A stretch of 35,451 nucleotides of DNA from a virus (IMGVR_UViG_2740892422_000002:1-35451); one strand, 5' to 3'. Shown: positions 136 to 35,451, counted from the first letter of the stretch. Notes: generated by a model not told the origin, from the letters alone. Numbers and translations are program-made.

Positions 136-137
136 AC

Positions 138-1022: not shown

Positions 1023-1036
1023 GTTCTATCTCCTTG

Positions 1037-4667: not shown

Positions 4668-4681
4668 TATTTTCTCCTTAA

Positions 4682-5461: not shown

Positions 5462-5464
5462 AAA

Positions 5465-7552: not shown

Positions 7553-8085
7553 ATGGGCGGTGATGTCTTCTCATTGTCGCCGTCCTTATGAATGTGTTTG
7601 ATGAAAGATTTACCGTTGATTGTGGCATCTGCAGTAAATTCACAGGGACCGACGAATTTCATTTGTTTACCGATAATATTCAGCAATTCGTCGGCGGTGA
7701 GATTTACCGTTTTCCCTGAAACGTTTAATTGTTCTCCTGTGATTTCAATAATTCCGCCTTTCTTTAACGTGATATGCGATTTACCGTCCTGGTGATACAG
7801 CCGGACATCACCGGGGGACAGGCCTTTCGGGCGACATCGCTTGTCCTCCACCGCGATGGCAACCAGCCCGTCACGCCGTCCGCCCACGGCCAGCACGATG
7901 GCTTCAGAACCTTCCGGCGGAACGGAAGTAAACCCGTAGTTCTGGAAGCGTTCCACGTCGTCGTCGGTGGCATCAGCCAGCGTCTGGATTTGCAGGTTCT
8001 GCCGCTCCAGACTGTCAGACACCATGCGCACAACGGCACGGTCAACCAGCAGCCGCAGACGGCGGGCAATTGCGTTTAATCCCAT
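7549..8085 (-). CDS. baseplate assembly/spike protein (Mu gp45-like)
   Basis: 178-aa ORF downstream of the gpD/P-like gene; synteny. Confidence 0.6.
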   Translation of the reverse strand: MGLNAIARRLRLLVDRAVVRMVSDSLERQNLQIQTLADATDDDVERFQNYGFTSVPPEGSEAIVLAVGGRRDGLVAIAVEDKRCRPKGLSPGDVRLYHQDGKSHITLKKGGIIEITGEQLNVSGKTVNLTADELLNIIGKQMKFVGPCEFTADATINGKSFIKHIHKDGDNEKTSPPI

Positions 8086-18779: not shown

Positions 18780-19544
18780 TTACTCACTGTCAAAACGGGC
18801 CTGTTTTGTCGCCAGCTGGCGTGCCAGCTCCTGCTCACGGTTTATACCGGGATTGTAGTTCCAGCCCGGATCAATCCCTTCCGGCACATCTTCCTCTTCG
18901 CCCGTGCGTTTGTTCACCCAGCGGACGGTTCTGATTTCCGGCGCTTCGGTGTGAATGGTGCCCTGTGCCGCCAGTTGCGCATACTCACCACGGCTGACCT
19001 GACGGATGGTGCATTTGCAGCCCCAGCCGTTAGGGGCAAAATGTGTCTGCCAGAACGGATGATCTACCGGCAGACACAGACGCGCCCATTTCACATGCTC
19101 CGCCCGGTGCTCGCGGGATGGCCCCAGCTCGTAAATCAGATACGGCATGGCCCGCTTTGTCCGTTGAATGCGTTCCCACTGGCCCGCCGCGCGGGCAGTG
19201 CGCATGTTGGTGTCAAAAATCGTACGGAGGCGGCGGTCGCTGCCCTGTTGCACGGTGCGGGTTTCACCCGTCAGCGGATCATCCATCTCCTGTACGCCCC
19301 ACCATCCGCGTTTTATCAGCAGCGGTTGCAGCGCCTCCCGGAACTCACTGAACGTCTGCCCGCTTTGCAGGGCGTCTTCCACAAGGGCTTTCACATCCGA
19401 CAACAAATCCAGTTGCAGCATTTTTGCCACGGTGAAGCTGTTCCGGTGCTCTTCCCGCCATACATCCCGGTAATCAAAACCGGGGCGCAGCTTCTTCGCC
19501 TTCAGCCACGCCAGCGCCTCTTTCGGGATGAGAGTTTCACGCAT
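18780..19544 (-). CDS. head morphogenesis protein (Mu F-like)
   Basis: 254-aa product from ATG at 19544 (MRETLIPKEALAWLK...); follows the portal gene. Confidence 0.8.
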   Translation of the reverse strand: MRETLIPKEALAWLKAKKLRPGFDYRDVWREEHRNSFTVAKMLQLDLLSDVKALVEDALQSGQTFSEFREALQPLLIKRGWWGVQEMDDPLTGETRTVQQGSDRRLRTIFDTNMRTARAAGQWERIQRTKRAMPYLIYELGPSREHRAEHVKWARLCLPVDHPFWQTHFAPNGWGCKCTIRQVSRGEYAQLAAQGTIHTEAPEIRTVRWVNKRTGEEEDVPEGIDPGWNYNPGINREQELARQLATKQARFDSE

Positions 19545-21108
19545 GAGCAGTGTCCCCCAGCACACGCGCCTTAAAGCACACCTCCGCCAGTTGCAGGGCA
19601 AAGTCGTCCGCGTTCAGCGTTTCCTGAAGCTCAGGCAGACGTTTCAGAAAGTCATCAAAACTGTCGCATTCCTGCGCCAGTGTCAGCACCGGGTTCGTGA
19701 ACGCCTCGCCGGTTTTCTGCCAGTCACGCAGGGCATCATCCACCATCTGTGCCAGTTCATCGGGGTGTTCACGGTTCAGGGCGACGCGCTCGCGGTTCAT
19801 CGCCATATCACCTGACATTCCGGCAGACACCGGATGCAGAACATCAGCCCCGTCGTCCGGTTCAGCCAGGCCGAACCGGTCCCGCAGCTCCGATTCCTGA
19901 ACCCGCATCCCCCGGTCAATCAGTGGCACCAGAGCGTCTGTCAGCGCCTTCAAATCTTCCGCTTCACTGATACGCAGAACAACACGGGGGTAGTGCGCCT
20001 GTGGCCCGTAGTTGGCCTCAATGTAGGGGCGTACCAGATATTCATTCAGCGTGTTAGCCAGCTGCCGCGCGTCCCAGCGCACAATGTCCATGCGCACCTG
20101 ATTGTGCACGTCCGCCTGTGAACGCGAACTGCCGTTATCCGTGGTCATGGTCTGCCCCAGCACGGCTTTACTGATTTGCGCATCACACCATTCCGCCATT
20201 TCACGGAACAGTGCGCCGCCGTTATTCCTGCTGGCGGTTTCCTTCATCTCCAGTTGCATGGACTGCGGAATGGCACACCCGGCATCCGAGGCAATGGAGG
20301 CAATCGCATCAATCAGCACGCGGATTTGCTCCTCCGTGGCGTTGGGACCGTATTTCCCCACCGTGACCGGAATGCCGAATTTTTCCGCAAATGCCCACCA
20401 GTCGCGCACGGTAAAGGATTTCAGCATGTACATCACCGCCACCAGACGGGCCAGACCGTTACGCAACGGCAGACCGGATTTCAGGCGCGGCTGGTGAACA
20501 ATGAATTTTCCCGGTGTCAGCGGTACGCCATCCACCGGTTCATCGTCCGTCAGCAGGCGGAACTGGCGCAGCGTGGGTTTTTCGGCTTTCAGAAAACGGG
20601 GATCAACCCATTCATAATCACGGGGCATCCAGTGGTTGTTGCGGGTGTCCCACAGGATTTCACAGACCGCCACGCCTTTTCCCAGCCCGTCGAGCAAATC
20701 AAACATCAGCTCAGGGATTTGCGGGGCTTCCATCAGCGCACGGATGGCGTCCGCCAGTTGCACGTCAGCATCGTCATCACTGGCGGCCACCACCACCGGT
20801 TCGATACCCGCCACCGTCAGCTTGCGGGTGCGCAGCACCGAGGCGTAATGCAAATCGCGTTCTTCCATCTCTTCAGCAAGGATAAAAAAATCACGTGTGA
20901 TGCCGTCGGCGGCATTGCGCAGAATGCCTGCCAGCCTGCCGGGGTTCAGCCCGGAGGCGACGCTGATACCCGGCGAGGCCGAACGCACACCGGCATGACG
21001 CGGACGGGCCTGTGCTTCGTTGAGCGCCTCTTTTTTCAGCGTGTCTTCCTCACCGGTTGCCGGGTTCAGCAGACGGCGAACGGCCCCGGCCAGTTGTTTC
21101 AGGTTCAC
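19537..21108 (-). CDS. portal protein (Mu H/gp29-like)
   Basis: 523-aa ORF with GTG start at 21108 preceded by GGGAGG RBS; GTGA overlap with terminase large stop. Confidence 0.85.
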   Translation of the reverse strand: MNLKQLAGAVRRLLNPATGEEDTLKKEALNEAQARPRHAGVRSASPGISVASGLNPGRLAGILRNAADGITRDFFILAEEMEERDLHYASVLRTRKLTVAGIEPVVVAASDDDADVQLADAIRALMEAPQIPELMFDLLDGLGKGVAVCEILWDTRNNHWMPRDYEWVDPRFLKAEKPTLRQFRLLTDDEPVDGVPLTPGKFIVHQPRLKSGLPLRNGLARLVAVMYMLKSFTVRDWWAFAEKFGIPVTVGKYGPNATEEQIRVLIDAIASIASDAGCAIPQSMQLEMKETASRNNGGALFREMAEWCDAQISKAVLGQTMTTDNGSSRSQADVHNQVRMDIVRWDARQLANTLNEYLVRPYIEANYGPQAHYPRVVLRISEAEDLKALTDALVPLIDRGMRVQESELRDRFGLAEPDDGADVLHPVSAGMSGDMAMNRERVALNREHPDELAQMVDDALRDWQKTGEAFTNPVLTLAQECDSFDDFLKRLPELQETLNADDFALQLAEVCFKARVLGDTAHA

Positions 21109-22640
21109 AGTAAACCTCCCTCATTTTTCAGGCCGCGCGTCAGCTTCATCTGGCGGCGCGCGTTGCGTTCTTCCGGTTTCGCCGGGCGGTTCAGGCGGTG
21201 CAGTTCGTAACGGTGGCAGTCATCCTTGCTGGCAAGGAAGCCCAGGAAAATGGCCACAGCGGCGTCGCCGTGACGTTTGTGACCGTCGCTGCCTCTGGTT
21301 CGTGAATCATCAATGCCGGGAACGCCACGCAGTAACTGAATGGCCCCGAGGTCATTGATCACGTCTTCATGCTTCGGAAGGATCAGCTCATCATCTTCAA
21401 ACGCTGCACGGAACCGGGGCATGTTTTCGCGGTAGAACGCCACGGACAGCATCACCTGTTCCACTTCGTCGCCGTACCGCTCCGCCGCCTGTTCTGCCAG
21501 ATACTGACCATTCCCCCGCGCATCCATTTTGATACCGTCACGACGGGGCAGACGATCGCAAAGCCAGAACAGCACCTGCTCCTGCTGTTTAAACGGCACA
21601 TTGCCAAGCTCAACCAGGAACGGCACCTCGCGGGTGGTGTCATCGTTCACCGTCACCGGGGCCAGTACGGTCAGGTCACCCGAACGCGCAAAGTCTTCCC
21701 CCAGACAGTGGCGCAGGTTCTTCGGGAGTTTTTTCAGCTCGGGGCGCACCACCGTTTCCAGCCATTCCCGGATATCTGCCCGGCGCTGGCTTTCCGTCAG
21801 TGCGTTAAATTCCGGTGTGCCGGTAAAGCGCAACACTTTCCCGGTGCCACGGGCCGCACGTTCACGCAGTGAGCGGCGGATATACGTGCCGCCGCCGTTT
21901 TTCGGGACGCAGTAATACTCCTCCAGCGCGTCTTCGCGGGTGGCGGTATTTCGCAGCAGGCCTTCTTTCCATTCCGCCTCGGCTTCCGGTGACCACACCA
22001 TGCCGCGCACCTGACAGATACGTCGGTACAGCCCGTCATTGCAGGCGTCGTCCAGCGTGATGGTGTGAATGCTGTAATCTTTTTTGCCCGCGCGGCTTTC
22101 CTGAATCAGCTGGTTAAACAGGTTGTCCACGCCGTCATGGGTGGAAATAAGGCGAATTTTGCCGCCCCATGTTTTCAGCGGCAGCACAGCCTTCAGCAGC
22201 TCGTCCAGTTTTTCATGGAACGCGGCCTCGTCGATGGTGACATTCCCCTGCATCCCGCGAATGTTGCTCGGGTTGCTGGACAGTGCCTTGACCTTAAAAC
22301 CGCTGGCGAAGTACACGACGAACGTCAGAATGTCCTTGTCTTCGTCGGTGATCACTTCCTCGCAGATTTCTTCCGCTGCCGCATTAAACGCTTTCGCCCA
22401 CATCGCCACAGCGTCGATAAATTCGCGGGCCATCTCCTTATTCGAACCGATATAAAAGTGATCGCGCCCGCCGTCTTCCTTCTTCAGCGATGCCGTCAGT
22501 GCTGCATCTGCCGCCTCCGCCCAGGTTAAACCTGTACGGCGGGATTTCTCGGCGATTTTCAGGTCGGCATCATCCGCCACCCAGCGTTTCTGATACGGCA
22601 GCAGAACATCATATTCACTGAACGTATCCATTTGTGTCAT
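21105..22640 (-). CDS. terminase large subunit
   Basis: 511-aa ORF; ATGA overlap with the terminase small gene; ATPase and nuclease-like regions; position upstream of portal. Confidence 0.9.
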   Translation of the reverse strand: MTQMDTFSEYDVLLPYQKRWVADDADLKIAEKSRRTGLTWAEAADAALTASLKKEDGGRDHFYIGSNKEMAREFIDAVAMWAKAFNAAAEEICEEVITDEDKDILTFVVYFASGFKVKALSSNPSNIRGMQGNVTIDEAAFHEKLDELLKAVLPLKTWGGKIRLISTHDGVDNLFNQLIQESRAGKKDYSIHTITLDDACNDGLYRRICQVRGMVWSPEAEAEWKEGLLRNTATREDALEEYYCVPKNGGGTYIRRSLRERAARGTGKVLRFTGTPEFNALTESQRRADIREWLETVVRPELKKLPKNLRHCLGEDFARSGDLTVLAPVTVNDDTTREVPFLVELGNVPFKQQEQVLFWLCDRLPRRDGIKMDARGNGQYLAEQAAERYGDEVEQVMLSVAFYRENMPRFRAAFEDDELILPKHEDVINDLGAIQLLRGVPGIDDSRTRGSDGHKRHGDAAVAIFLGFLASKDDCHRYELHRLNRPAKPEERNARRQMKLTRGLKNEGGLL

Positions 22641-23218
22641 GCGCTAATCCCCAGAATTTCACGTTTGATGGTGTCAGCCGCACCACCTGACAGACCGCCC
22701 GTTCTGACCAGTTCTTCGGTTTTCTCTGCCATCTCCTGCGCAAACGCATCGCGGATCGCTTTCTCGCGTTTATGGCTGGTCATGGCTGCCGCTTCCAGAC
22801 GCTGGGCAACCAGCGCCAGTTGCCCCAGCGCCTTCGGTGCAACGGGCTTGTCGTCTTCTGCCATCGACATGGACGTTTCAAAGGCCAGCGTTTTCACAAA
22901 CTCCATCAGCAGCTTGCCGACGTCTGACGTCGGCGCGGAACCCAGCTTTGCCGCCCAGACTTCGGCCATTTCGCGGGAGGCGCGGATTTTGGCCCCGACT
23001 TTTTCCATGCGGATGGCATAGCGGTTTAAGCCCGTCCGGCTTAACTGCATCTCTTCCGGCAGGTTGTGTTCGTCAATCAGGGCGTTGATGGCTTCGCGGA
23101 TTTCTTCCTGCGTGTGCCGCTTTTCCCGCAGCATCTGATGCAACTGCTCCCGGATGCTGTCAGGGAGTAAATCCACTTTGGAAAGACGGCCACGGGTGGG
23201 GCGTTGTTCATTTTCCAT
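22637..23218 (-). CDS. terminase small subunit-like DNA-binding protein (Mu gp27/D-like)
   Basis: 193-aa product from ATG at 23218 with AGGAGG RBS (the ORF-track start at 23239 is a GTG); ...SKVDLLPDSIREQLHQML... typical of the Mu-like terminase small subunit family. Confidence 0.7.
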   Translation of the reverse strand: MENEQRPTRGRLSKVDLLPDSIREQLHQMLREKRHTQEEIREAINALIDEHNLPEEMQLSRTGLNRYAIRMEKVGAKIRASREMAEVWAAKLGSAPTSDVGKLLMEFVKTLAFETSMSMAEDDKPVAPKALGQLALVAQRLEAAAMTSHKREKAIRDAFAQEMAEKTEELVRTGGLSGGAADTIKREILGISA

Positions 23219-23355
23219 GTGTGCCCTCCTGTTGCTCACTACGCTGTAAACTTTCGTATGCAGATTTCAGTGCGCCGCTCTGGATTTCCCGCCATGTCAG
23301 GTTGTGCGCCAGACGGCGGAGTTCATCACGGGACGCTTTACTTATCGGATTCTTT

Positions 23356-23655
23356 TTACGGTTCACGACGGCCCCCGTCTTCAGTTCCCGGTGTTTTCAG
23401 ACCGGCGTATATTTCTTCGCGAACGGAGCGGATATCCTTACCCAGCAGCTTCCACAGCCGCGCACATGCCGGTGATGAACGCAGGGCACGTTTCATGGGG
23501 GTATCCGGTGCATCCGGGTTCCAGGGCTTTCCGGTCTGTTGTTCATATGCACGGGCGATGGCGTTTTTCTCAATATCCGCGAGCACAAGACAGTACGCCA
23601 GCTGCCGCACGACGGCCCGTTCTCCGCGACTTAACGGCTTCAGTTTTCGGGCCAT
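23356..23655 (-). CDS. hypothetical protein
   Basis: 99-aa ORF tightly packed after the upstream gene; no family recognised. Confidence 0.4.
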   Translation of the reverse strand: MARKLKPLSRGERAVVRQLAYCLVLADIEKNAIARAYEQQTGKPWNPDAPDTPMKRALRSSPACARLWKLLGKDIRSVREEIYAGLKTPGTEDGGRREP

Positions 23656-23657
23656 GC

Positions 23658-23951
23658 TCAGTCCCTCGCACGGGGTTTCTTAACGCCCGGAACGCTGGAC
23701 AGGCCGTTTGCCACATCCTCACCGCTGCCGGTGATTTCAGCCACGTAACAGCCGCCCACATCAGACAGACGAACCAGCCCCTGCTCGCGCAGCCATGCAA
23801 GCTGGGTGCGCACCACATCACGGGATACCTTATGACCGTAGGCCTGAAGGCAGGTCTGCAACACGGATTCATTCGCGCTGTCGCCACAGTCCAGCAGGGA
23901 ACGCAGCAACACCAGACGACGGTCTTCAGTGAGGATCTCTTTCATCGCCAT
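23658..23951 (-). CDS. hypothetical protein, possible winged-helix DNA-binding protein
   Basis: 97-aa ORF with ATG at 23951 overlapping the upstream stop; helix-rich N-terminal half. Confidence 0.45.
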   Translation of the reverse strand: MAMKEILTEDRRLVLLRSLLDCGDSANESVLQTCLQAYGHKVSRDVVRTQLAWLREQGLVRLSDVGGCYVAEITGSGEDVANGLSSVPGVKKPRARD

Positions 23952-24256
23952 TATTTTTTTTCCTTTAACTCGTTCTCTAATAACAAATCGCTGATGCGGG
24001 ATACCTGGCGGATGGATGGCCCCAGCTCTTTGATTTCTCCCCGCAGGTTGCTGATATCCAGTTGCAGGCGGTGGAACTCATCACGGTCGGGTAAATGGTG
24101 TACCTGGCTTTCCATCACCGACACGCGGGAACGGAGTGAATCAAACTCTTCACGTTTGACGTAGGTTTTCGCCAGAATCAACTGAAGCAGGTTTATTCCT
24201 GTCATCAGCAATGCCCACAGAATGGGCCAGTTGGCTCTGATCATTTCCCAGGACAC
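23951..24256 (-). CDS. membrane-anchored coiled-coil protein (DUF2730-like; candidate lysis accessory protein)
   Basis: 101-aa ORF with N-terminal hydrophobic segment WPILWALLMTGINLLQLIL followed by a charged coiled-coil region. Confidence 0.5.
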   Translation of the reverse strand: MSWEMIRANWPILWALLMTGINLLQLILAKTYVKREEFDSLRSRVSVMESQVHHLPDRDEFHRLQLDISNLRGEIKELGPSIRQVSRISDLLLENELKEKK

Positions 24257-24468
24257 GTTTTCCTCCTGCGTTCACGCATCTGCTGACAGTCAATACAGGT
24301 CACCACATCCGGCAGCGCCGCAAGGCGCTGTGCCGGAATAACGTTCCCGCAGTCATTGCATAAGCCCCGGCTGTGGGGCGCTTCTTTTGTCCGCGTCTGC
24401 CAGGCTTTAACGACGCTCTGACGCTCGTTCAGAACCACTTCACTGATGCGGTCGATTTCGTCGGTCAT
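24241..24468 (-). CDS. TraR/DksA-family C4 zinc-finger protein
   Basis: 75-aa ORF with CNDCG...(17 aa)...CIDCQ motif. Confidence 0.75.
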   Translation of the reverse strand: MTDEIDRISEVVLNERQSVVKAWQTRTKEAPHSRGLCNDCGNVIPAQRLAALPDVVTCIDCQQMRERRRKTCPGK

Positions 24469-25073
24469 TTCAGCCCCGCAGAAATTTTGTGACGGCTTGA
24501 CTTGCTGTAACGGGCAAAGCCGTCAAGGGTTCTTACACCGAGATAGCCCAGCGCCGGGGTAAGCAACATCAGCGTGATATCCCAGTCCGGTGACGGCATA
24601 TGCAGCGAGATACCTCTGGCACCGGCAATGGCTCCGGCAATCTGGCCGCAGGAGAGCAACAGCACATAGGCCAGACTGCTGTAACAGGAAAGGCGGGCCA
24701 GCAGCGGGCGCGTCTGGCGCACATAGCTGTCCGTGGCGTTGTCACCATTGCGGATGGTTTCCTGCTGTTCGTGGTGTGCGGCCTGCTGGTCAGCCAGCAC
24801 CAGCTTCTGCCGTTCCACCTCCAGCTGTTGCAGCTGAATTTTCAGGGTTTCCAGTTGTATCTGTTGTTCCGGTGGTAACATCGCCATCTTCTGTTCCAGA
24901 ACGCGCTGCTGTTCAGCCACCGGCAGGCTTTCCCGGACGCTTTCCACCATACCGGCCACCGAGTCAGCGGCAGCAGACGTGCTGCCACCAAACCAGCGCC
25001 CGACGGAACGAATCAGCCCCGGCCCGGCGTTCAGCAGAACAGAGGCGATGCCTGAAAGGGTTAACGGATCCAC
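24465..25073 (-). CDS. coiled-coil membrane protein (candidate spanin-like lysis protein)
   Basis: 202-aa product from GTG at 25073 preceded by GGAGG RBS; Gln/Glu-rich heptad-like region; C-terminal hydrophobic stretch containing LLLSCG. Confidence 0.4.
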   Translation of the reverse strand: MDPLTLSGIASVLLNAGPGLIRSVGRWFGGSTSAAADSVAGMVESVRESLPVAEQQRVLEQKMAMLPPEQQIQLETLKIQLQQLEVERQKLVLADQQAAHHEQQETIRNGDNATDSYVRQTRPLLARLSCYSSLAYVLLLSCGQIAGAIAGARGISLHMPSPDWDITLMLLTPALGYLGVRTLDGFARYSKSSRHKISAGLK

Positions 25074-25486
25074 GGGAAACCTCCATACAGATAACGCTGA
25101 AGACAGAGCAGACCGCCGCAACTGCCACCACACAGCCAGAACACCGGATGCACCGGTGACATCATCATCAGCGTGCTGAAGACGCAGCAGAAATACCCCA
25201 GCGCCCAGACCACCCATGACCACACGATGATGTGGCGACCAAAAGCCCGGTAACGGACTTCAGGCAGCAGGCGAAATGGCACATTCCCGAGGCTTGCGCT
25301 GTATGAAAACAACACCACCCCGGCAAAGGACAACAACATCAATACGAACGATCGCCAGCCACATAACATGCTGATGATGAACATGCAGAGTGTCAGTCCG
25401 GCCAGCGGCCATGGCGTTCTCATCAGTCGGGAACAAATCAGCCAGTCACACAGTTTTAAAATTTTGTTCATTACCTTTTTCCACAT
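25061..25486 (-). CDS. polytopic small membrane protein (candidate holin)
   Basis: 141-aa product from ATG at 25486 with GGGA RBS; three to four hydrophobic segments, Cys/Trp-rich. Confidence 0.4.
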   Translation of the reverse strand: MWKKVMNKILKLCDWLICSRLMRTPWPLAGLTLCMFIISMLCGWRSFVLMLLSFAGVVLFSYSASLGNVPFRLLPEVRYRAFGRHIIVWSWVVWALGYFCCVFSTLMMMSPVHPVFWLCGGSCGGLLCLQRYLYGGFPWIR

Positions 25487-25697
25487 TGAATTTTTCCCTG
25501 TACTTCTGGCACTGCCAGAAAATGTCCCGTGTATCCACGGAGTTCCAGCCACGCATGTAGTAGCTGGCGTGTGTGCCGTCATGGCCTGTATAGTCCAGCG
25601 GTTTCGGGGGCGGACCTCCGGCCATGCGGTGCAGAACCTCCTGACGCAGGCGGTCACGCCGCCCGGCTTTCAGTGAGGCATCCCAGCCTTTACCCAT
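25446..25697 (-). CDS. hypothetical protein (lysis cluster)
   Basis: 83-aa ORF whose ATG at 25697 follows the endolysin stop; no transmembrane segment or lipobox. Confidence 0.4.
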   Translation of the reverse strand: MGKGWDASLKAGRRDRLRQEVLHRMAGGPPPKPLDYTGHDGTHASYYMRGWNSVDTRDIFWQCQKYREKFNVEKGNEQNFKTV

Positions 25698-25698
25698 A

Positions 25699-26283
25699 TC
25701 ACCCCCGCGTGGCGGACATGATGCCCAGAGGGGTAAGACAGGCGTCGGTCAGCTTTTCCATGCGGTTAAACCAGCCGTTCAGGTATTTGCCCTGGGCGGG
25801 TTTTGATTTGATGATGTCGGCATAAAAGCGGGAACGACGGACAATACAGCGGGCCAGCAGCCAGTCAGGGGTGGACTGGCTCACGGCCTTGCGGGTACGC
25901 GGCCCGATGATGCCGTCAGCATCCACATCAGCGGCCTCCTGCAAAAGTTTGATAGCCTTTTTAACGCCATGCTGAACCGCCGCATCAAACACAAAAAGCG
26001 CCACGCCATCAGGCCACTGGTCACACCCGGCAGGCAGCCAGTAATCGCGCCAGTAAATCTGCGCAACCTGTTCGCGGGTCAAATCCTTAATGCGGGTATC
26101 CGGTTTGCCGTCGCCGTTGACGTCGGTTTTGCCGTCAATCACACCGTCGCGGCGGTCAGAAATGCCGTATTTGGTTTCGCCGCCACGGTCAGTGGGGTCA
26201 TTGACATAGACGCCTTCGATATCGGGACGCAGAATGAAATTCAGCGCATGTTCAAAGGCCGGGGAGAATTTTTGATTTTCCAT
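25699..26283 (-). CDS. endolysin, glycoside hydrolase family 108-like with C-terminal peptidoglycan-binding domain
   Basis: 194-aa ORF; N-terminal ...ALNFILRPDIEGVYVNDPTDRGGETKYGIS... matches the GH108 catalytic motif; no signal or SAR sequence. Confidence 0.8.
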   Translation of the reverse strand: MENQKFSPAFEHALNFILRPDIEGVYVNDPTDRGGETKYGISDRRDGVIDGKTDVNGDGKPDTRIKDLTREQVAQIYWRDYWLPAGCDQWPDGVALFVFDAAVQHGVKKAIKLLQEAADVDADGIIGPRTRKAVSQSTPDWLLARCIVRRSRFYADIIKSKPAQGKYLNGWFNRMEKLTDACLTPLGIMSATRG

Positions 26284-26338
26284 AAAAGCACCTGTGAAGC
26301 AGATTTAAACGTGGTCTGCTTCATGGTGCCGGAGGCAT

Positions 26339-26362
26339 AAAAAAAGCCGGATTTACCGGCTT
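26339..26362 (-). terminator. Rho-independent terminator-like hairpin with U-tract (copy A of a duplicated element)
   Basis: Minus strand AAGCCGG-TAAAT-CCGGCTT followed by T-run; lies between the secreted-protein gene stop (26385) and the endolysin start (26283). Confidence 0.6.
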
Positions 26363-26384
26363 CATTGAATATAAGGTTATTGGT

Positions 26385-26882
26385 TCAGTTAACTTTACGG
26401 GCAGAACACGTAGTCTTCATTACTGAACGTTCAATTTTTATCTTCCAGCCATTTACTGTTTTTTCGACAGGATCATCTTCAGCTTGCTTTAAATTTTTAA
26501 CTTGCATGAAATTCAGCGGGGCTGGGGTATCATCGTCCCATGATGTCGGGCGAACATAATCAGGGACAACAAAAGGCTCAAAAACAGTTTCACATAAAGC
26601 AGACGTCATTTGAGCGAACTCGTCGCTATCGGGGCGAACCGGTCCTGTAACATACTGCATTTTTATGTTGATTTCGTTATCTCGCACAGACGTCTTTAAA
26701 TCCTGATATACACCTAAGTTAAATCCTTTAAACTCAGCAATGGCAGCGTCACCTTTACCGTACCAGTCGGTATAGTCAACGGATGTTTTTTTCTGAAAAA
26801 CATCTTTGACTTTTTGCTGGAATGTATCCGCCGCTTGTACAGTAGTAACAGTTAGTAAAAGAATAAGGGGAAGATATTTCAT
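26385..26882 (-). CDS. secreted/periplasmic protein of unknown function (AT-rich moron)
   Basis: 165-aa ORF with N-terminal signal peptide MKYLPLILLLTVTTVQA|AD; markedly AT-rich relative to flanking phage genes. Confidence 0.7.
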   Translation of the reverse strand: MKYLPLILLLTVTTVQAADTFQQKVKDVFQKKTSVDYTDWYGKGDAAIAEFKGFNLGVYQDLKTSVRDNEINIKMQYVTGPVRPDSDEFAQMTSALCETVFEPFVVPDYVRPTSWDDDTPAPLNFMQVKNLKQAEDDPVEKTVNGWKIKIERSVMKTTCSARKVN

Positions 26883-27280
26883 TGTTCGTCCTTAAATAGT
26901 TGCATTTGATATTTTCCACGCTCCAGTCGGCGCATTCTTTTGATGGCCTGATATACCGTTTTGTATGTCACTTTGTAACGCTGCACCAGCTCCGCTACGT
27001 TTTTCCCATCAAAATCACGCCAGATGCGCATGTCTCTGATAAGATTTTCCAGTATTTTCCCTTTCGGAACATATACCTGAATCCCACCGATATGATTGCA
27101 AATCGCCACTACCAGCTCAAGGGAGTGGGCAGGGTTAACTCCAAGCCTTATCAGCTCTTGTCGCAACAGAGCATTCAGCTCAGCCAGTAAAGATGGAAAT
27201 CCCGATTTTTCCTGAACATCATCAAAATATTCAAGGATACTGTCGTCCTGATAATCACCAAATAAATCCTGCTCTTTCAT
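26879..27280 (-). CDS. mor: Mor/C-family transcriptional activator
   Basis: 133-aa ORF with acidic N-terminus and C-terminal ...AHSLELVVAICNHIGGIQVYVPKG...YKTVYQAIKRMRR... resembling Mu Mor/C; located directly after the gemA-like gene. Confidence 0.7.
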   Translation of the reverse strand: MKEQDLFGDYQDDSILEYFDDVQEKSGFPSLLAELNALLRQELIRLGVNPAHSLELVVAICNHIGGIQVYVPKGKILENLIRDMRIWRDFDGKNVAELVQRYKVTYKTVYQAIKRMRRLERGKYQMQLFKDEQ

Positions 27281-27828
27281 AGAACTATTCTCCCGCTGTT
27301 TCTGGCGCGGGCATACGCACTGGTCAGTGCATCATATCCGCGCAGTTCCCGCCCGGTTTCGCTCACAGGTAAAGGCACGCCGTGTCGGGCAAAGGCTTCC
27401 CGAATGCAGCGCATATGCCACTGCTTGAGCGTTTCGAGCACAACCTGCAACGATTCCCCATGACACCAGGCCAGCGTGGAAACACCCTGACCACCATTAC
27501 GTCTGGCCGTCAGACGTTCAACGTATTTGTCCAGCGCGGCGTCGCTGATATCGGAGACGAAACCATCAAGAAACATCTGCTGCCAGATTTTATAAATCTT
27601 CTCGCGCGGTGTGACATGCCCCTTAAAGCGACGGCGGGGATGTTTTTTCTGCTTTTTAAAACCGCGCTCTTTCATGGCATCGAGCACTTGTTCCAGTTGT
27701 GCAACAGACAGCTCGCGGCAACTGGTTTTGCCCGTGCACTGCACCAGAAAAGCTCGGTAAGTGTCATCGTCGAGTTGCAACTCCCGACGGGCAACATGAA
27801 TTAATTTAATCAGGGATGTGCGGCTCAT
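27277..27828 (-). CDS. gemA: GemA-like early protein
   Basis: 183-aa ORF immediately upstream of mor, matching Mu gemA in position and size. Confidence 0.6.
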   Translation of the reverse strand: MSRTSLIKLIHVARRELQLDDDTYRAFLVQCTGKTSCRELSVAQLEQVLDAMKERGFKKQKKHPRRRFKGHVTPREKIYKIWQQMFLDGFVSDISDAALDKYVERLTARRNGGQGVSTLAWCHGESLQVVLETLKQWHMRCIREAFARHGVPLPVSETGRELRGYDALTSAYARARNSGRIVL

Positions 27829-28141
27829 TATGTCCCCCGGATTTAAAAATTAATTCAGTGTTGAATAGCTCTTTACTCATTCGCTGTAGCACATCGAGGG
27901 CGGCAACTGCCGCCACTTTATCCTGACTGGCAATGATTCCCCGCAACTCTTCGATAATCCATGCAGGGCTTAATGATTCAGCAATCATCGTGCGCTTTTC
28001 TGAAATTAAATTTTCTCTGGCCTGCTCATAGTGTTGGTATACGACATTATCCAGAAAATAATTTACCTCTTGTTCTGACATGCCACTGGAAATTAAGGTT
28101 GCAGCCATTAAATCAGCATCAGTAATCATCTGTATTTTCAT
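27806..28141 (-). CDS. hypothetical early protein (AT-rich accessory region)
   Basis: 111-aa acidic ORF between gam and gemA. Confidence 0.5.
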   Translation of the reverse strand: MKIQMITDADLMAATLISSGMSEQEVNYFLDNVVYQHYEQARENLISEKRTMIAESLSPAWIIEELRGIIASQDKVAAVAALDVLQRMSKELFNTELIFKSGGHNEPHIPD

Positions 28142-28316
28142 TTCTTAATACCTCTTCGCAATAAAAGATTTCATTGGGATAACGTTTTTGTATGCGCTCA
28201 ATCACCTGCATACATGCCTGCTCTGTGGGCCAGATTTTTTCTGTTGCCGGGATAGCATCACAGGCATCACTCCCGCAGGTGCCAACCAGCAGGACAAAGC
28301 CAATTGACTTAATCAT
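28119..28316 (-). CDS. small secreted or lipoprotein-like protein
   Basis: 65-aa product from ATG at 28316 (MIKSIGFVLLVGTCGSDACD...): N-terminal hydrophobic segment followed by Cys, with four further Cys. Confidence 0.45.
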   Translation of the reverse strand: MIKSIGFVLLVGTCGSDACDAIPATEKIWPTEQACMQVIERIQKRYPNEIFYCEEVLRNENTDDY

Positions 28317-28851
28317 GTTCACTGACTTCCTGTGTTGCTGCCGGAGCTGGTGAATAATCAAGAATGAGATAGCGCATGACGTGGTCGGTGATATTCCAGC
28401 CACTGGAACCACAAATAAAGCGCCCCAGCCGGATATCGATATACGCCATCACAAAACGGGGCATCCCCTGTTTGCACATCTCGTCATCCACTTCAGCAAC
28501 GATGTAAACCGACTCGCAGGTCAGTACGCCTGTCGCAAATTCTTTTGCCAGTGCCGGAATGGCATTGCCTTCCAGCCAGGGCAAAGAGCGGCGGAACGCG
28601 CACCATTGAGCATTATCAACAGCGGGGTGTTCCGTTGTTGCGTTTCGTCTTACTGGCGGCGTTGGACGAGGGCGCGGAACGTCATAAAATCCGTTACATT
28701 CAGTGAGAACTCCGGCATCAACCGCATCACGCAGGAAATACACCATTGACGAGGGCAGCATATTCATTTTTTCAGCCAGAACCCCGCAGGTCAGACGCCC
28801 GTAAGCCCGTAATAATGTGCTGACACCATTCAGAACTTTTGCATCAACCAT
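28309..28851 (-). CDS. hypothetical early protein, possible winged-helix N-domain
   Basis: 180-aa ORF; first gene after gam and a 98-bp spacer. Confidence 0.5.
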   Translation of the reverse strand: MVDAKVLNGVSTLLRAYGRLTCGVLAEKMNMLPSSMVYFLRDAVDAGVLTECNGFYDVPRPRPTPPVRRNATTEHPAVDNAQWCAFRRSLPWLEGNAIPALAKEFATGVLTCESVYIVAEVDDEMCKQGMPRFVMAYIDIRLGRFICGSSGWNITDHVMRYLILDYSPAPAATQEVSEHD

Positions 28852-28949
28852 TTTTTATTCCTCAGTAATCTGTTTCAGGCGCGAGCAATCCCCTGACGCA
28901 TCGCGCCATAATTAAAAGAAAGTGAACTAATTAAATATTAATGGTGGTA

Positions 28950-29474
28950 TTAAATACCGGCTTCCTGTTCAAACGGAATAATAGAAAAATCTTCAATGCC
29001 TGATTTAACTGTAATTCCGGCGACACCTGCGACTGCTTTCGGTTCCAGTAAAATCGCTTCCTTGTTGATTTCCTGTTTCGTGCGAATAAAGCGTTGCAGG
29101 CCAAGACGCTCCAGCGTTTCCATCACCGCATCCACACCGCGAATACTTACCGATGGTGGGCGCTGACGCCATGACACATCGCCGGTTACCAGGTTCGCCG
29201 TCTTCACCTTGCCGCCGTTCGTCAGTTCGTCGCGGTTCGCTTCACACCATCCCTGAACGCCTTTTGAAAGGGTTTCAATACTGGTTTTAAGGGGCGCAAT
29301 CTGTGAGGCGTATTTCTCAGTAATTTCAGCGATAGCGTCATTCATTTCCGTTTCAAGTCGTGCCGCTTCGCGTTGCAGGTCACCAATCCGGCGAATATCA
29401 CACACCACGGCATCGCGGGATTGCGGAACATAAGCTGCTGCGGCACTCTTGATTCGTTTTGCTGGTTTAGCCAT
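28950..29474 (-). CDS. gam: host-nuclease inhibitor Gam (Ku-like DNA end-binding protein)
   Basis: 174-aa ORF MAKPAKRIKSAAAAYVPQSRDAV... with coiled-coil; matches Mu Gam in length and sequence as recalled. Confidence 0.85.
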   Translation of the reverse strand: MAKPAKRIKSAAAAYVPQSRDAVVCDIRRIGDLQREAARLETEMNDAIAEITEKYASQIAPLKTSIETLSKGVQGWCEANRDELTNGGKVKTANLVTGDVSWRQRPPSVSIRGVDAVMETLERLGLQRFIRTKQEINKEAILLEPKAVAGVAGITVKSGIEDFSIIPFEQEAGI

Positions 29475-29494
29475 ATAAATAAAGCTCCTGTTAA

Positions 29495-29785
29495 TTAATA
29501 TTCGCTGTATACAATGCTGGATACAGCACGATTGCTTAATTCCATCTTTTGGGCAATGACATGAATAGCCAGCCCTTCTTTATAAAGTTCACGACACAAA
29601 TATTTGTCGTGCTCACTGACCCGGTATGCACACAACGATATTCCGTGCCTTCTGGCATGTGCCTGTAGGGCGGTTGGGGCAACGTTCAGTTTTTTCGCCA
29701 TTTCCTCGACGGTCATTTTCCCGACACTGGCTTCGATAAATTCCCGGTCTTCGCGTGACCATCTTTTGCGAGGGATTATCATCAT
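29495..29785 (-). CDS. small HTH-containing DNA-binding protein
   Basis: 96-aa product from ATG at 29785 with GGGAAGGAGG RBS; HTH-like segment TVEEMAKKLNVAPTALQAHARRHGIS. Confidence 0.5.
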   Translation of the reverse strand: MMIIPRKRWSREDREFIEASVGKMTVEEMAKKLNVAPTALQAHARRHGISLCAYRVSEHDKYLCRELYKEGLAIHVIAQKMELSNRAVSSIVYSEY

Positions 29786-29801
29786 GCCTCCTTCCCTGAA
29801 A

Positions 29802-30071
29802 TTAATGTTTGGCTGCATCCGGGTTATACCGGAATAACTCGCCTTCGGCTTCCAGCCCAAGTTCTCTGGCTGACTTCAACAACTCCTGGGTTGCTTTTTC
29901 AATAATTTCAGGAGCCATGCTCTTGATAATGCCTGCCATCACGTCATGTGGTCCGATTTGCGCCTTAGGTGACTGTTCTTTCAGTTGCACACTCATTCCT
30001 ACAAAGAAACCTCCTTTTTTCTGAAACTCAACATCTTCCATGCGGTTAAATTCAAAGATTACTTTTGCCAT
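29802..30071 (-). CDS. hypothetical early protein
   Basis: 89-aa product from ATG at 30071 with GAGGAA RBS (MAKVIFEFNRMEDVEFQKKGG...). Confidence 0.5.
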   Translation of the reverse strand: MAKVIFEFNRMEDVEFQKKGGFFVGMSVQLKEQSPKAQIGPHDVMAGIIKSMAPEIIEKATQELLKSARELGLEAEGELFRYNPDAAKH

Positions 30072-30099
30072 TTTGTTATTCCTCACAAATAAGCCGTTA

Positions 30100-30327
30100 T
30101 TAACGCCAGATAATCTGGCAACCATTAAGGCGGGCCGTCCATACGGAACGGGCAACCCCTGATTTATGCTCCATAATCCTGACAGCGTTTCTGACCAGCT
30201 CCGGTGGTGGGCAGGTGATTTCAAGTACCGGGCGGGCTACGCCCAGCCAGGATTCGTTGACGTGGCTGCCGTGCTCCTGTAACCAGGTCTTTACTTCCGT
30301 TGCCATTTTGATATTCCGTGACATCAT
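30100..30327 (-). CDS. kil: Kil-like small protein (by position after B)
   Basis: 75-aa product from ATG at 30327 with GGAGAG RBS, starting 13 nt after the B stop; assignment by synteny with Mu. Confidence 0.45.
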
Positions 30328-30340
30328 GATTTCGCTCTCC

Positions 30341-31279
30341 TTACGTGCGCAGCAGGGTTGAAATATCAACGTCGAGGTCTAATTCACGGAAAGCCTGACG
30401 CAGATAATCTTCATTAACACGTTCACCTTTGCCGTGGGCGGTCATGGCCGCAAGGCGCAGCGAGTGGTTCAGGATGCGAAGCGCACCTGGTTTTTGCGCA
30501 ATCTGCTGTAATAATTCCCGCTCGTTTTCGCCGGTAATTTGCCAGGCATCCGCAATGGCCTTTACATCATCAATTTTGGTTTTATTGATTGCCGTCCGTT
30601 TGGCAATACGGGAAAACAGTCGGGCAAATTCAACCGTTCTGTTACCACCGGTCATGTTTGAATAAACGCGGTGATTCCCCATCAGAACAAGGCCAATACG
30701 GGCGGATTCCTGCAACAGGCGGAGTTCTTCCAGAACTTCAGCGCCAAGATGATCAGCTTCGTCGATAATGACCAGCCCCTGCGTACCTTCAAGGCGGCGT
30801 CGCAAAGCGCGGGAGAGCGGCCCTTTGCGGCGCGGTGCGTCATTCATTCCCAGTTCATACGCCAGTTCAGTGAGACATTCCAGAACACTGGCGCAGGATG
30901 GGGTAATGGTGATCATCCAGACATTGTTATTGGTGCGACGAAATTCGCGGGCTGCTTCAGTTTTTCCCACACCTGGATTACCGCAGATAACAGAAATACT
31001 TTCAGTCAGGCTGGCAAAACGCATACTCGTCCAGATTTGGCGTGCTGTTCTGGTTTCCACAAAACGTGGTGGTTCTGGCAGCTCTGCGGCACGGTGATAG
31101 TTCTCCAGCCAGCGTTCCAGCGTCTGCGCAACACGTTCATTGTCGCCGTTGTACTTGTTATTCACGAATGCGCTTAACGTTCCTGCGGCCACGCCAGACT
31201 CGCGTGCAATTTGTGCATAAGTCGCTTTTTCACTTTCTACAAGCGTGCGCAGTCCTGCGCGAATATCGGAAATATTCAT
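30341..31279 (-). CDS. B: transposition ATPase / target DNA activator MuB
   Basis: 312-aa ORF with Walker A GNPGVGKT and Walker B IIDEADHL; near-identical to Mu B as recalled. Confidence 0.92.
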
Positions 31280-31317
31280 CTGAATAACCTCGTAATTAAA
31301 TTTTGTTTAAACGTTAA

Positions 31318-33309
31318 TTAAATGGCTTTTTTACGTCTGTTCTGTTCCAGAATATCCAGCGAATGATTCAGATATTCATCACGATCAGTTTCATATTCAT
31401 CATCGGGTTCCTGGTATTTCACCTGCACCGTGTTACCGGAAGGCCGGAAAATACCAACAACCCTTGATTCTGGCGCTGCTGGTTCGGCTATCTGCGGCAG
31501 CAGTTCAGCAATTTCCAGCGCGTCCATTTGTTTCTGCGCCTTAATGGCTGCTTTAGTTGCAGATTTCAGTTGTTTCTGGCGGCGGCGATATTCACGGCCT
31601 GCCGCAGCATCATTAAACGCAACAGGTGCCAGACATTCCGCTTCACAGATAAACCGACCGTCCAGGGTGTAGCAATAAACCGTGCTGTGTAGCTGTTGTG
31701 GATCAAATCTGACCACAACTTTTTTCACTCCGGCATTCATTAACGCCATGTTGTAATAAACGTTTTTCGCGCCTTTAAGGGAGCCGCCAACTTTAAGCGT
31801 AAACTCGCCTTTGCGTGAAACGTTCACCGCCTCGGCAGGCAGTAACAGCATCCGTTTTTGTTCTTCGGTTGGCTTACGCACAATCGTTCTGGCGTATTCA
31901 CGCTCGAAAACATCATCAAACGAGAGTTTGCCCCCGCACATTTCTGTTTCACGGCCTGTTCTGGCATTGAACATCGCCACACCTTCGGCAAGGGTTTTCA
32001 GAAACAGCTCTGCATCAACAGCGCGGTCGCCATAGTTATCAGGTTTTGCCTGCGGATTTGGCCCCGTATATGCGCCAGCCAGTGCCGGATGCTTATCAAC
32101 GTATTCCTCAAGCCCACCAACACCGAAAGCACGTTCAACAGGTTTTGCCTGGCCCCAGCCTTTACCGGCAACAACGCTTGTCCAGTGCATTTTCGCGCCC
32201 ATCAGTAAAAACAGTCCCTTTGGATCGTCCTCTTTTACCTTAAAGCGGTAACGATTGGGCGCGCCTCCCGTCAGCCATTTATTCGCTGCACCACGGGTGT
32301 TATCAATGGTGATGTGAAAATCCTCCGGGATACCGTAGCGAGTCACAACATCCATGAACGAGAGGCGAATTGAATCAATGTTCTCGCTCACATCGCAGCG
32401 CCAGCCCAGAATTTTTCGGGTTTTCACATCCTGCCAGAACCATGTTTTCGGGCGGATCACATCACCGTTAAACCAGCGTACAAAGACGTTATGCAGATAA
32501 CCGTCGCCGTTGATCCACTGCATGGCGTCCAGGTGTTCCACAGTTCGTTGCTGTGCCGGTATCAGATGCATCAGTGCATGTTCACCTTCACGGCAGGCAA
32601 CAACCATTGCCTCGTCCAGTTGCTGAATCCGGCGAAAGGCCGTGGCACGGGAGGGAATATTCCAGTCATGCTCACGTGCTGCCAGTTCCAGACGCTCATA
32701 ACATTTGCGAAAGGCGGGTTTTTCCGGTCGCAGATAATCTGCAATCAGAAACTGCCAGGCATCCTCGTCAAATTCACTTTTGTGAACGTTGCGACGGGAT
32801 GCACCACGGCCATCAACAAGCGCAGCCGCCCAGTCAGACTTCGCAAACTTCTGTACCTGGTAATATTTGTCCCGCAAAGTGGATGCGCTGACCTGGTAAT
32901 GTCCAGCAACGGTCGCAAATGCCGTTTTCGTTGAAATCCCCTGGTTCAGCATTTCGTCTGCAGCCTGAACCGCAGGCAACCATTTTTCAGCAAGTCTGCG
33001 CTGGGAATCGCTGGCGTTATCCCATTTGCTCCACAGTGCCTCACGATCATAATCATGGGCTTCCAGCGTGGGGCGGGCGATTTCAAAACGGCCCAGGCTT
33101 GTTTCAATCTCTCCTTGTCTAAGCAATAACGCCGCTTTCGCTTCAACAGGTAAAGAGTTAGCATTGTATTCAATTGCTTTACCTCCTTTGACACCTGCTC
33201 TAGTGCGGTTTTGCCATCCTTGCTTTTTAGCGACATAAATCACACCAGCTGATGTTTTCGGCAAGCCAGGAAGATTCGCACACTCTTTCGGTGACACCCA
33301 AAGTTCCAT
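31318..33309 (-). CDS. A: DDE transposase MuA
   Basis: 663-aa product from ATG at 33309 ([15 protein letters not shown]...), one nucleotide after the ner stop; matches Mu A. The ORF-track 685-aa version carries a spurious 22-aa N-terminal extension. Confidence 0.92.
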
Positions 33310-33310
33310 A

Positions 33311-33538
33311 TTATTCACCTGCTTGATATCGGCTAGGCCAGATGACTTCCGGTTTAGTTTCAAGGGCGTTAGCAATAATCTGTTCGCCCTTTGGCCAGTG
33401 CCGTTCTAGCGCATTAGCTAATGTTGTTGGCGCATAACCAAACTGCCGAGAAAGAGCTGATAAAGAGAGCTTTCTTTTCTTAAGTCCCGCAATCACATCA
33501 GCACGATGCCAATCACGGACCTTTTCGTTGGAACACAT
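33311..33538 (-). CDS. ner: Ner DNA-binding regulator (negative regulator of early transcription)
   Basis: 75-aa [55 protein letters not shown]...; matches Mu Ner. Confidence 0.9.
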
Positions 33539-33706
33539 TTAAAAACCCTCCTAAGTTTTGTAATCTATAAAGTTAGTAATTTAACTAAGTGCAAAAACTT
33601 AGTTTACTTGCCAAAAAGATAAATACTGAAAAGTCTTTTGTAAAGTAACTTTTCAGTATTGTTGGGTGTATTTTGTTTATCACATTGAAAAATAAGGGTT
33701 TAAATT
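33539..33706. promoter_or_regulatory. divergent early/repressor promoter and operator region (also the expected position of the transposition enhancer)
   Basis: AT-rich intergenic between divergent ner (-) and c (+); 13-bp inverted repeat AATACTGAAAAGT/ACTTTTCAGTATT (33622..33634 and 33648..33660) and repeated GAAAAGT motifs. Confidence 0.7.
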
Positions 33707-34297
33707 TTGAAAAGTAACTTTACAGAATCCACTGATACTAAAAAGTCAATCTGGTGTACGCCGCAAGAAATTATGGCTGCTGATGGTATGCCTGGATCTG
33801 TTGCAGGTGTTCACTATCGGGCAAATGTTCAAGGCTGGACAAAGCGAAAAAAGGAAGGTGTGAAGGGGGGAAAAGCAGTTGAATACGATGTGATGTCTAT
33901 GCCCACCAAAGAACGAGAGCAAGTTATTGCACACCTAGGTCTGTCTATTCCTGGCACTGCTGCTCAAGCTAATGAGCAGCAGGATTCTTCGGAGCTGATA
34001 AACAAATTAACCACAACCTTAATCAATATGATTGAAGAACTGGAACCAGATGAAGCACGTAAGGCACTGAAACTTTTAAGCAAAGGTGGACTATTGGCGT
34101 TAATGCCACTTGTATTTAATGAACAGAAACTTTACAGCTTTATAGGATTTTCACAGCAAAGTATCCAGACGTTGATGATGCTAGATGCATTACCTGAAGA
34201 AAAACGCAAAGAGATTTTGTCAAAGTATGGGATTAATGAACAGGAGAGCCTTGTAGCTCCTTTGCAGGATCCACAAGATGTAAAAAAAGCCGTATAA
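33707..34297 (+). CDS. c: Mu-type repressor c
   Basis: 196-aa ORF (M)KSNFTESTDTKKSIWCTPQEIMAADGMPGSVAGVHYRANVQGW...; matches Mu repressor; begins with TTG at 33707 immediately after an in-frame stop. Confidence 0.88.
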   Translation: MKSNFTESTDTKKSIWCTPQEIMAADGMPGSVAGVHYRANVQGWTKRKKEGVKGGKAVEYDVMSMPTKEREQVIAHLGLSIPGTAAQANEQQDSSELINKLTTTLINMIEELEPDEARKALKLLSKGGLLALMPLVFNEQKLYSFIGFSQQSIQTLMMLDALPEEKRKEILSKYGINEQESLVAPLQDPQDVKKAV

Positions 34298-34456
34298 CAA
34301 CCAGGAACCTAGCTAAAACACACACTTCCCCTCAGTAACCTAGAGGGTAAGATACTGAAACAACAAAAGCTGTTTTTGATATACGTCATTCGCCAGAAGC
34401 CTGGTTGTTATCGGGTTTGAAGCGTTTTTGAAGCTGCAATTGAAATAATGCGTGAA

Positions 34457-34636
34457 GCAACTGCTTTTCGTATGTTTAATGAAACAAAAGCCATTTCTAA
34501 CAATCTTTCGCGTTTCAATGCTTAACGGCTAAAATTTGTTCTACAGGCTTGCAAGCCCCACCAAATCTAATCCCGTCAAATCCCGAATAATCCAATATCC
34601 TCCCGGTTTTTTTCGTACTTCTCGTGAATCAATACA
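34457..34636 (-). other. Mu left-end (attL) region with terminal MuA-binding sites; terminus at 34636
   Basis: Minus strand from 34636 reads TGTATTGATTCACGAGAAGTACGAAAAAAACCGGGAGGATATTGGATTATTCGGGATTTGACGGGATTAGATTTGG..., matching the Mu left end with a few substitutions. Confidence 0.85.
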
Positions 34637-35451
34637 CCGGTGATGAGCAGGTTGAGGTGCTGAAGGGCATCAGCCTCGATATTTATGCGGGTGAGATGGT
34701 CGCGATTGTTGGCGCTTCGGGTTCCGGTAAATCGACCCTGATGAATATTCTCGGCTGTCTGGATAAGGCCACCAGCGGCACCTATCGCGTCGCCGGTCAG
34801 GATGTTGCCACGCTGGACGCCGATGCGCTGGCGCAACTGCGCCGCGAGCATTTCGGCTTTATTTTCCAGCGTTACCATTTGCTTTCGCATTTAACCGCCG
34901 AGCAGAACGTTGAAGTACCCGCCGTCTATGCTGGTCTTGAGCGGAAACAGCGACTGCTTCGTGCCCAGGAGTTGCTGCAACGGCTGGGGCTGGAAGACCG
35001 TACAGAGTATTATCCGGCACAGCTTTCGGGTGGTCAGCAACAGCGCGTCAGCATCGCGCGGGCATTGATGAACGGTGGTCAGGTAATTCTTGCCGATGAA
35101 CCAACCGGCGCACTGGACAGCCATTCTGGCGAAGAGGTGATGGCGATCCTGCATCAGCTGCGCGATCGTGGGCATACGGTGATTATCGTCACCCACGATC
35201 CGCAGGTCGCTGCTCAGGCCGAGCGGGTGATCGAAATTCGCGACGGCGAAATTGTGCGCAATCCTCCCGCCATTGAAAAAGTGAATGTTACTGGCGGGAC
35301 GGAACCTGTTGTCAACACGGTGTCTGGCTGGCGGCAGTTTGTCAGCGGTTTTAACGAGGCGCTGACGATGGCATGGCGGGCGCTGGCAGCGAATAAAATG
35401 CGTACTTTACTGACCATGCTGGGGATTATTATCGGTATTGCGTCGGTGGTT
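34637..35451 (+). pseudogene. macB: macB (macrolide ABC transporter ATP-binding/permease), 3' portion only; gene interrupted by the prophage and running off the window end
   Basis: In-frame translation from 34639: [56 protein letters not shown]...[15 protein letters not shown]...[11 protein letters not shown]..., i.e. the ABC ATPase domain of E. coli MacB beginning around codon 18. Confidence 0.85.

Follow-up and report, generated by a model that had tools for sequence, protein, structure and literature searches.

We use the term window for the whole stretch of DNA analysed here (IMGVR_UViG_2740892422_000002), which is the entire 35,451-bp contig JRGC01000248.1 of the Escherichia coli draft assembly GCA_000754855.1. 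Since the window is a whole contig, both of its edges are assembly breaks, the left one falling, as is usual, in a repeat. As can be seen in Table 1, it opens with the end of an IS10 element, continues with a Mu-like prophage in reverse orientation, and closes with a piece of the chromosomal gene macB.

Table 1. Position, strand and main characteristics of the features in the window
Feature	Coordinates	Strand	Characteristics
IS10, transposase-proximal end	1..93	-	93 bp, stops at the contig end; 100% identity to the Tn10 IS10 on R100
Mu-like prophage, part on this contig	94..34636	-	34,543 bp; collinear with a complete 35,259-bp copy
mom, 5' fragment	94..187	-	about the first 31 codons; interrupted by IS10; intact com-mom loci align from base 94, base 93 differs
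com	138..323	-	61 aa; Pfam Zn_ribbon_Com; Com family regulator in siblings (RefSeq)
MuB-type target-capture ATPase	30341..31279	-	312 aa; Pfam Phage-MuB_C (E=3e-33), AAA_22
MuA-type DDE transposase	31318..33309	-	663 aa; Pfam DDE_2 (E=2.3e-136), HTH_Tnp_Mu_1, HTH_Tnp_Mu_2, Mu-transpos_C
ner	33311..33538	-	75 aa; Pfam HTH_35 (E=1.5e-27)
Repressor c	33707..34297	+	196 aa; Pfam HTH_Tnp_Mu_1 (E=5.9e-53); transcribed toward the phage end, co-directional with the macB remnant
attL region with MuA end-binding sites	34298..34636	-	L1 34610-34626, L2 ~34504-34525, L3 34465-34481
Phage left-end terminal dinucleotide	34635..34636	-	CA on the + strand, 5'-TG on the phage strand; Mu bases 1-2
CCGGT target pentamer, predicted target-site duplication	34637..34641	.	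adjoins the phage end; one flank on the contig
macB remnant	34637..35451	+	nt 47-861 (from the second base of codon 16 to codon 287), cut by the contig end; without promoter, ribosome-binding site or start codon

A Mu-type left end and a late region of its own

The early region of the prophage has the organization of a Mu-type phage, with the genes for the transposase and the target-capture ATPase next to a divergent c/ner switch. The repressor gene is found where Mu has its own c gene (339-929, minus strand), and the MuB allele is a common one, present in 2,176 blocks. Outward of c, the left end displays multiple MuA-binding sites, another Mu-type trait. The end-binding consensus YMYNWRAARYRCGAAAR, as quoted in the GenBank record of phage D108, is matched without mismatch at L1 (offset 11-27) and with one mismatch at L3 (offset 156-172), while L2 is a block that is invariant in a three-way alignment with Mu and D108. 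The consensus has three matches in the window, compared with 0.31 expected by chance. The third of them (31764-31780, minus strand) was rejected as an end-binding site, given its one mismatch and its position within the transposase gene, remote from both ends; chance probably explains it.

Starting from the left end, ~7.6 kb share 88.9% nucleotide identity with Mu. The late region (lysis, head and tail), on the other hand, has no nucleotide-level counterpart (at most 13% coverage) among 50,697 deposited phage records, and in identical siblings, that is, other copies of the same phage, its genes carry Mu-family Pfam domains. Judged by these sequence comparisons, the phage is a mosaic. Among 5,426 complete E. 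coli genomes, 43 contain at least 80% of a query made from window 94-25000 (24.9 kb of the late region). The phage has neither a gin invertase nor an invertible G segment; the stretch from the baseplate genes to com is free of any invertase ORF, and we have therefore filed the phage as Mu-like and not as Muvirus mu. In their place lie a DUF4376 protein (447-1022), a tail-fibre assembly protein and a single fixed fibre of 1037 aa (1037-4150). A laboratory Mu or mini-Mu derivative is ruled out, with ~88% identity to Mu versus 99.98% to natural prophages of enterotoxigenic E. coli (ETEC).

The closest of these is the prophage of strain ETEC1732, to which window 90-34636 aligns with 99.977% identity over 34,548 aligned bases, with five mismatches and three single-base gaps, bearing in mind that this alignment includes four bases of the IS10 end and that one of the five mismatches is IS10 base 93. 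Each of the three indels coincides with a place at which the ETEC1732 copy has either an annotated frameshift or an ORF of unusual length, and at these places the ORF lengths in the window match those of other siblings. Apart from mom, the prophage in the window looks intact. Searches with exact copies of the DUF4376, repressor, tail-fibre and MuB sequences yielded nothing but sibling prophages inserted elsewhere, and a search of the literature on ETEC1732, or on macB together with a Mu-like prophage, found nothing relevant.

An IS10 element cuts the prophage at mom

At the other extremity of the window, the prophage is cut short by IS10. The matching IS10 sequence on R100 lies 15 bp upstream of an IS4-family transposase CDS, and positions 1-48 are recognized by the Rfam model of the IS10 antisense RNA, RNA-OUT (56.9 bits versus a gathering score of 41) although the hit is cut by the sequence end, which gives the terminal sequence with RNA-OUT next to the transposase start that characterizes IS10. 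The element sits in the anti-restriction gene mom after approximately codon 31, the Mom protein of siblings being 231 aa long, and the prophage is therefore mom-negative. The 9-bp IS10 target adjoining the element is CGCGCAGCT (94-102). Compared with the ETEC1732 copy, the part of the phage missing beyond IS10 amounts to the last ~717 bp, consisting of the 3' part of mom and attR. A Mu right end, which the first-pass annotation had proposed to look for to the left, is thus absent from this edge, where the first 93 bases are the IS10 end in mom. The IS10/mom junction has no exact match in the genome collection scanned, nor does either start variant of the mom'-IS10 chimeric ORF correspond exactly to a protein on record. 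At the opposite edge, the contig breaks off within macB, at 35451, in unique sequence without a repeat, which suggests a coverage gap or a fragmented assembly and not biology.

The phage end adjoins macB nucleotide 47

Three independent routes place the junction between phage and host to the base. The first is Mu itself: window 33300-34636, in reverse complement, can be aligned over its full length with Mu 1-1337 at 87.8% identity, and window 34636, where a Mu-type left (repressor) end finishes, is the counterpart of Mu base 1, also in an alignment with both Mu and D108. The second is a comparison of eight copies of the phage, that is, the window and seven others in different host contexts that were fetched via exact matches to the repressor. 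All eight are the same through ...CGTGAATCAATACA (...CAATACA) and unlike from the next base, so the boundary is known empirically, beyond the analogy with Mu. At 34636 the phage therefore has the terminus expected of 5'-TG...CA-3' ends, and the right end of siblings reads ...GCGCCGCTTCA. The third route is the host gene. In 5,425 of 5,426 complete E. coli genomes, the match to macB sets in at window 34637 (query base 338). The corresponding position of the K-12 reference locus (L021; macA 1843-2958, macB 2955-4901) is 3001, which makes window 34637 nucleotide 47 of macB, in the middle of codon 16. On the window side, 46 nt of macB (15 codons and 1 nt) are absent.

These results agree in most respects with the first-pass annotation, which had put a terminal CA at 34635-34636, macB coding sequence starting mid-gene directly against it, and CCGGT at 34637-34641. 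All of these positions are right, as is the translation that it gave from 34639, and the comparison with an uninterrupted macAB locus that it recommended is what locates the break at nucleotide 47. Its figure of about 17 missing codons holds for the stub expected at the other junction (nt 1-51, including the pentamer), but not for the window side. That the downstream ORF might not be macB, which would have spoken against its proposal, can be set aside, since the 815-bp remnant is 100% identical at the nucleotide level to K-12 macB nt 47-861; it is likewise identical to many other strains, and this identity does not discriminate between alleles.

Since the contig continues through the junction for 815 bp, the insertion was clonal in the sequenced culture. 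Could the join nevertheless be an assembly chimera, or a junction carried by a subpopulation while most cells keep an intact macB? Mu-type phages make many junctions when induced, and the window is contig number 248 of a fragmented draft and ends abruptly in mid-macB. However, the join falls at the exact terminal nucleotide of the phage and next to a preferred pentamer, which a random chimera would not do. A mixed population would have broken the assembly at the phage end instead of giving 815 bp of a single flank, and Mu virions carry only ~50-150 bp of host DNA at the left end. We regard a chimeric or subpopulation junction as very improbable. A Mu-like prophage is integrated inside E. coli macB, as the first-pass annotation had it, and this is confirmed by the exact terminus, the L1 and L3 sites, the ORFs for MuA, MuB, c, Ner and Com, a collinear sibling and a macB gene broken at nucleotide 47.

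The target pentamer predicts the far junction

Mu-type transposition is known to use a 5-bp staggered target with the consensus CYSRG (PMC7350765), and the site preference of the siblings agrees with both the consensus and the stagger. In the 28 end reads that represent 25 distinct insertion sites of this phage, a pyrimidine occupies position 2 in 26, G or C occupies position 3 in 23, and a purine occupies position 4 in 27. The phage thus enters many unrelated sites, with only an N-Y-(G/C)-R-N preference, and the pentamer in the window, CCGGT, fits it at all three constrained positions. This pentamer is present in intact K-12 macB, once, at nt 47-51. All three siblings with both ends on one contig are flanked by perfect 5-bp duplications (GCTAT, ATGGT and GCCGT).

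That CCGGT is a target-site duplication, and that the 5' stub of macB and macA lie beyond the other prophage end, are well-founded predictions. The far junction is predicted to read ...CAGCTATCCTGCCGGT joined to TGAAGCGGCGCACG..., given also as ...CGTCGCAGCTATCCTGCCGGT joined to TGAAGCGGCGCACGAAAAACG.... On the phage strand, attR (...GCGCCGCTTCA) would be joined to ACCGGCAGGATAGCTG..., the reverse complement of macB nt 36-51. Such a junction would leave a macB stub of 17 codons followed immediately by a TGA in the phage right end, and it should be found ~2 kb from the left edge of the window, on another contig.

Neither the genome nor the metagenome collections scanned contain an exact match to the predicted junction of the macB 5' end, CCGGT and attR. 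The attL/macB junction as it stands in the window likewise has no exact match in the metagenome collection, the insertion of this phage in macB occurs in none of 5,426 complete E. coli genomes, and the 35-aa ORF that spans the attL/macB junction has no exact counterpart among proteins on record.

macB is left without its beginning

What remains of macB still carries a recognizable ABC domain. The Pfam domain ABC_tran is detected in the remnant with an E-value of 1.9e-34, retaining profile positions 1-136 of 137. The remnant corresponds to residue 17 onward of K-12 MacB, whose intact form aligns residue for residue with PDB entry 5NIK (E=1.5e-176). The expression signals have been lost. An intact macB would have its own start overlapping the macA stop; here, the sequence upstream of nt 47 is phage DNA, and the ATGA overlap that couples macB to macA in K-12 is gone from the remnant with everything else upstream. 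The lost residues 1-15 would form the first β-strand of the ATPase domain and include Tyr14, which aligns with Tyr11 of MJ0796. We take Tyr11 of MJ0796 to be the A-loop tyrosine, whose ring stacks against the ATP adenine. Because the expression signals, the first β-strand and Tyr14 are all lost, the macB allele in this strain is, as far as the sequence allows us to judge, almost certainly null, and the MacAB-TolC pump would be lost with it. The expectation of the first-pass annotation, that MacAB-TolC efflux should be abolished, is therefore sound.

Might the remnant be partly active nonetheless? Read-through from the repressor promoter, with translation starting at a GTG at 34624 or at Met36, could yield a truncated MacB that is active or that interferes with MacA/TolC. 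The repressor gene is co-directional with macB, and no terminator-like site was found between the c stop codon and the phage end (34297-34636). The macB frame extends 15 codons back into the phage end, to 34591, with the GTG at 34624 as the sole in-frame start there, and ABC_tran and the rest of the protein are intact up to the contig end. A trace of an N-terminally altered MacB might consequently be made, at a low level. Against this, the sequence upstream of the GTG (CCTCCCGGTTTTTTTCGTACTTCTC) has no Shine-Dalgarno motif, the first β-strand and the A-loop residue Tyr14 would be absent from any product, and translational coupling to macA is no longer available. We therefore give a partly active macB very little credence and retain the null allele as the preferred reading. 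No promoter-like site is seen between the repressor gene c and the phage end. For the record, initiation at the GTG would yield MNQYT fused to MacB residue 17 (residues 17-648).

The operon ends with macB, and cspD, which comes next in K-12, lies on the other strand, so that no polarity on downstream genes is to be expected. Regarding phenotype, macrolide resistance through MacAB requires its overexpression, and intrinsic resistance owes nothing to pumps other than AcrAB (PMC4263509). Macrolide susceptibility is consequently a poor read-out of the mutation, and a macrolide test, which had been suggested for this locus, would probably not reveal the defect in an AcrAB-positive strain. Phenotypes that do depend on MacAB include protoporphyrin efflux and, as cited in the same study, enterotoxin II secretion (PMC4263509).

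Discussion

Established Mu biology provides a straightforward scenario for how this locus would have arisen. A MuA transpososome would assemble on the L1-L3 and R1-R3 end sites, and the two 3'-CA ends would be joined at macB nt 47-51 (CCGGT), to target bonds separated by 5 bp. Repair would then produce a simple insertion with a flanking 5-bp duplication, leaving the left (repressor) end of the prophage against the 3' portion of macB, the remnant of which runs from codon 16, while on the far side an intact macA would be followed by the 17-codon macB stub. IS10 would have entered mom, a non-essential phage gene, later, and its repeat would have broken the assembly, which would put the far junction off this contig.

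The main alternative accepts the junction as real but not the event as simple. Mu and IS10/Tn10 both promote adjacent deletions and inversions, and Mu-type replicative transposition or IS10 could have generated an adjacent deletion or inversion that puts the far end of the prophage somewhere other than at the macB 5' end and macA, in which case loss or rearrangement may exceed macB. The far end is indeed off the contig, with IS10 between it and the visible prophage, and some siblings (L008/L031 and L035) are internally rearranged or deleted. On the other side of the argument, the visible 34.5 kb are perfectly collinear with an intact copy, the siblings with both ends readable are simple insertions with 5-bp duplications (3/3), and the 9 bp by the IS10 end (CGCGCAGCT) run seamlessly into mom, as is to be expected of a plain IS insertion. 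We find a complex event of this kind unlikely, and consider it highly probable that the complete account is a Mu-type phage in chromosomal macB, inserted by a simple event, with a null macB and a later IS10 in mom.

The simple insertion is an ordinary, textbook gene disruption by a Mu-type phage, a kind of event that is already known. The phage genotype is already in public genomes, and the sole novelty relative to the collections searched is where it has inserted. In practical terms, macB on this contig should be annotated as a prophage-interrupted pseudogene, and the strain considered a natural macB mutant. More generally, one Mu-like phage genotype has recently inserted into different genes of different E. 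coli strains, which makes it a small but concrete example of gene inactivation by a phage among natural isolates. Since copies that are 99.98% identical are found in flhA of Belgian pig ETEC and in macB, one might go further and speculate that the phage is now active as a natural insertional mutagen in livestock-associated E. coli, the macB knock-out perhaps being selected and not neutral, for instance through altered MacAB-dependent export of heat-stable enterotoxin II or protoporphyrin, or a truncated MacB interfering with MacA/TolC. We think it improbable that all this holds.

Comparison with known systems

Compared with E. coli MacB (PDB 5NIK and 5LJ9), the ABC half of MacAB-TolC, the remnant is without residues 1-15, part of codon 16 and the expression signals, and the 3' part of the gene past codon 287 is off the window's contig.

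With Mu (Muvirus mu; AF083977/NC_000929), the phage shares the terminal 5'-TG...CA-3', L1-L3 sites at the same offsets, a c/ner/A/B early module in the same order (88.9% over ~7.6 kb), com-mom on the right side, near-random insertion at a CYSRG-type 5-bp pentamer, and gene inactivation by insertion, the property for which Mu, the "mutator" phage, was named. The two phages differ in their late regions, which have no nucleotide match, and in that Mu has gin and the G segment while the phage in the window has neither. D108 has the same left-end architecture, its annotated transposase sites at 11-27 and 156-172 coinciding with those in the window, and it aligns with an 8-kb early-region query over 73% at 87.7%. 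With a 1.3-kb left-end query, in contrast, both D108 and SfMu (Muvirus) align only over the first ~360 bp, at 77-83% identity, because the immunity regions differ.

Several siblings are known from other host sites or in other forms. The flhA insertion of ETEC1732 is also seen in assemblies L005, L010, L012, L026, L028, L033 and L034. Among these flhA copies, the tail-fibre region of L005, L010, L026, L033 and L034 contains a transposase of the IS5 type (326 aa, DDE_Tnp_1), at about 5260-6240 or 8387-9369 of their loci. In L008/L031 and L035, internal deletions join the early genes directly to the baseplate genes.

The best counterpart is the flhA prophage of ETEC 1732 and 1734, two Belgian pig strains (NZ_CP122823.1, 2159655-2194913). 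It is the same phage, 35,259 bp long, collinear with the prophage in the window and 99.977% identical over 34.5 kb. It also splits a host gene, flhA being annotated as two partial pseudogenes in RefSeq (1282-1665 and 36915 onward in locus L022, NZ_CP122823.1, 2158000-2196500), and its 5-bp duplication, GCTAT, is observed directly. Both strains are predicted to be non-flagellate. The differences are that the interrupted gene is flhA and not macB, that mom is intact and free of IS10, and that both prophage ends lie on one complete chromosome.
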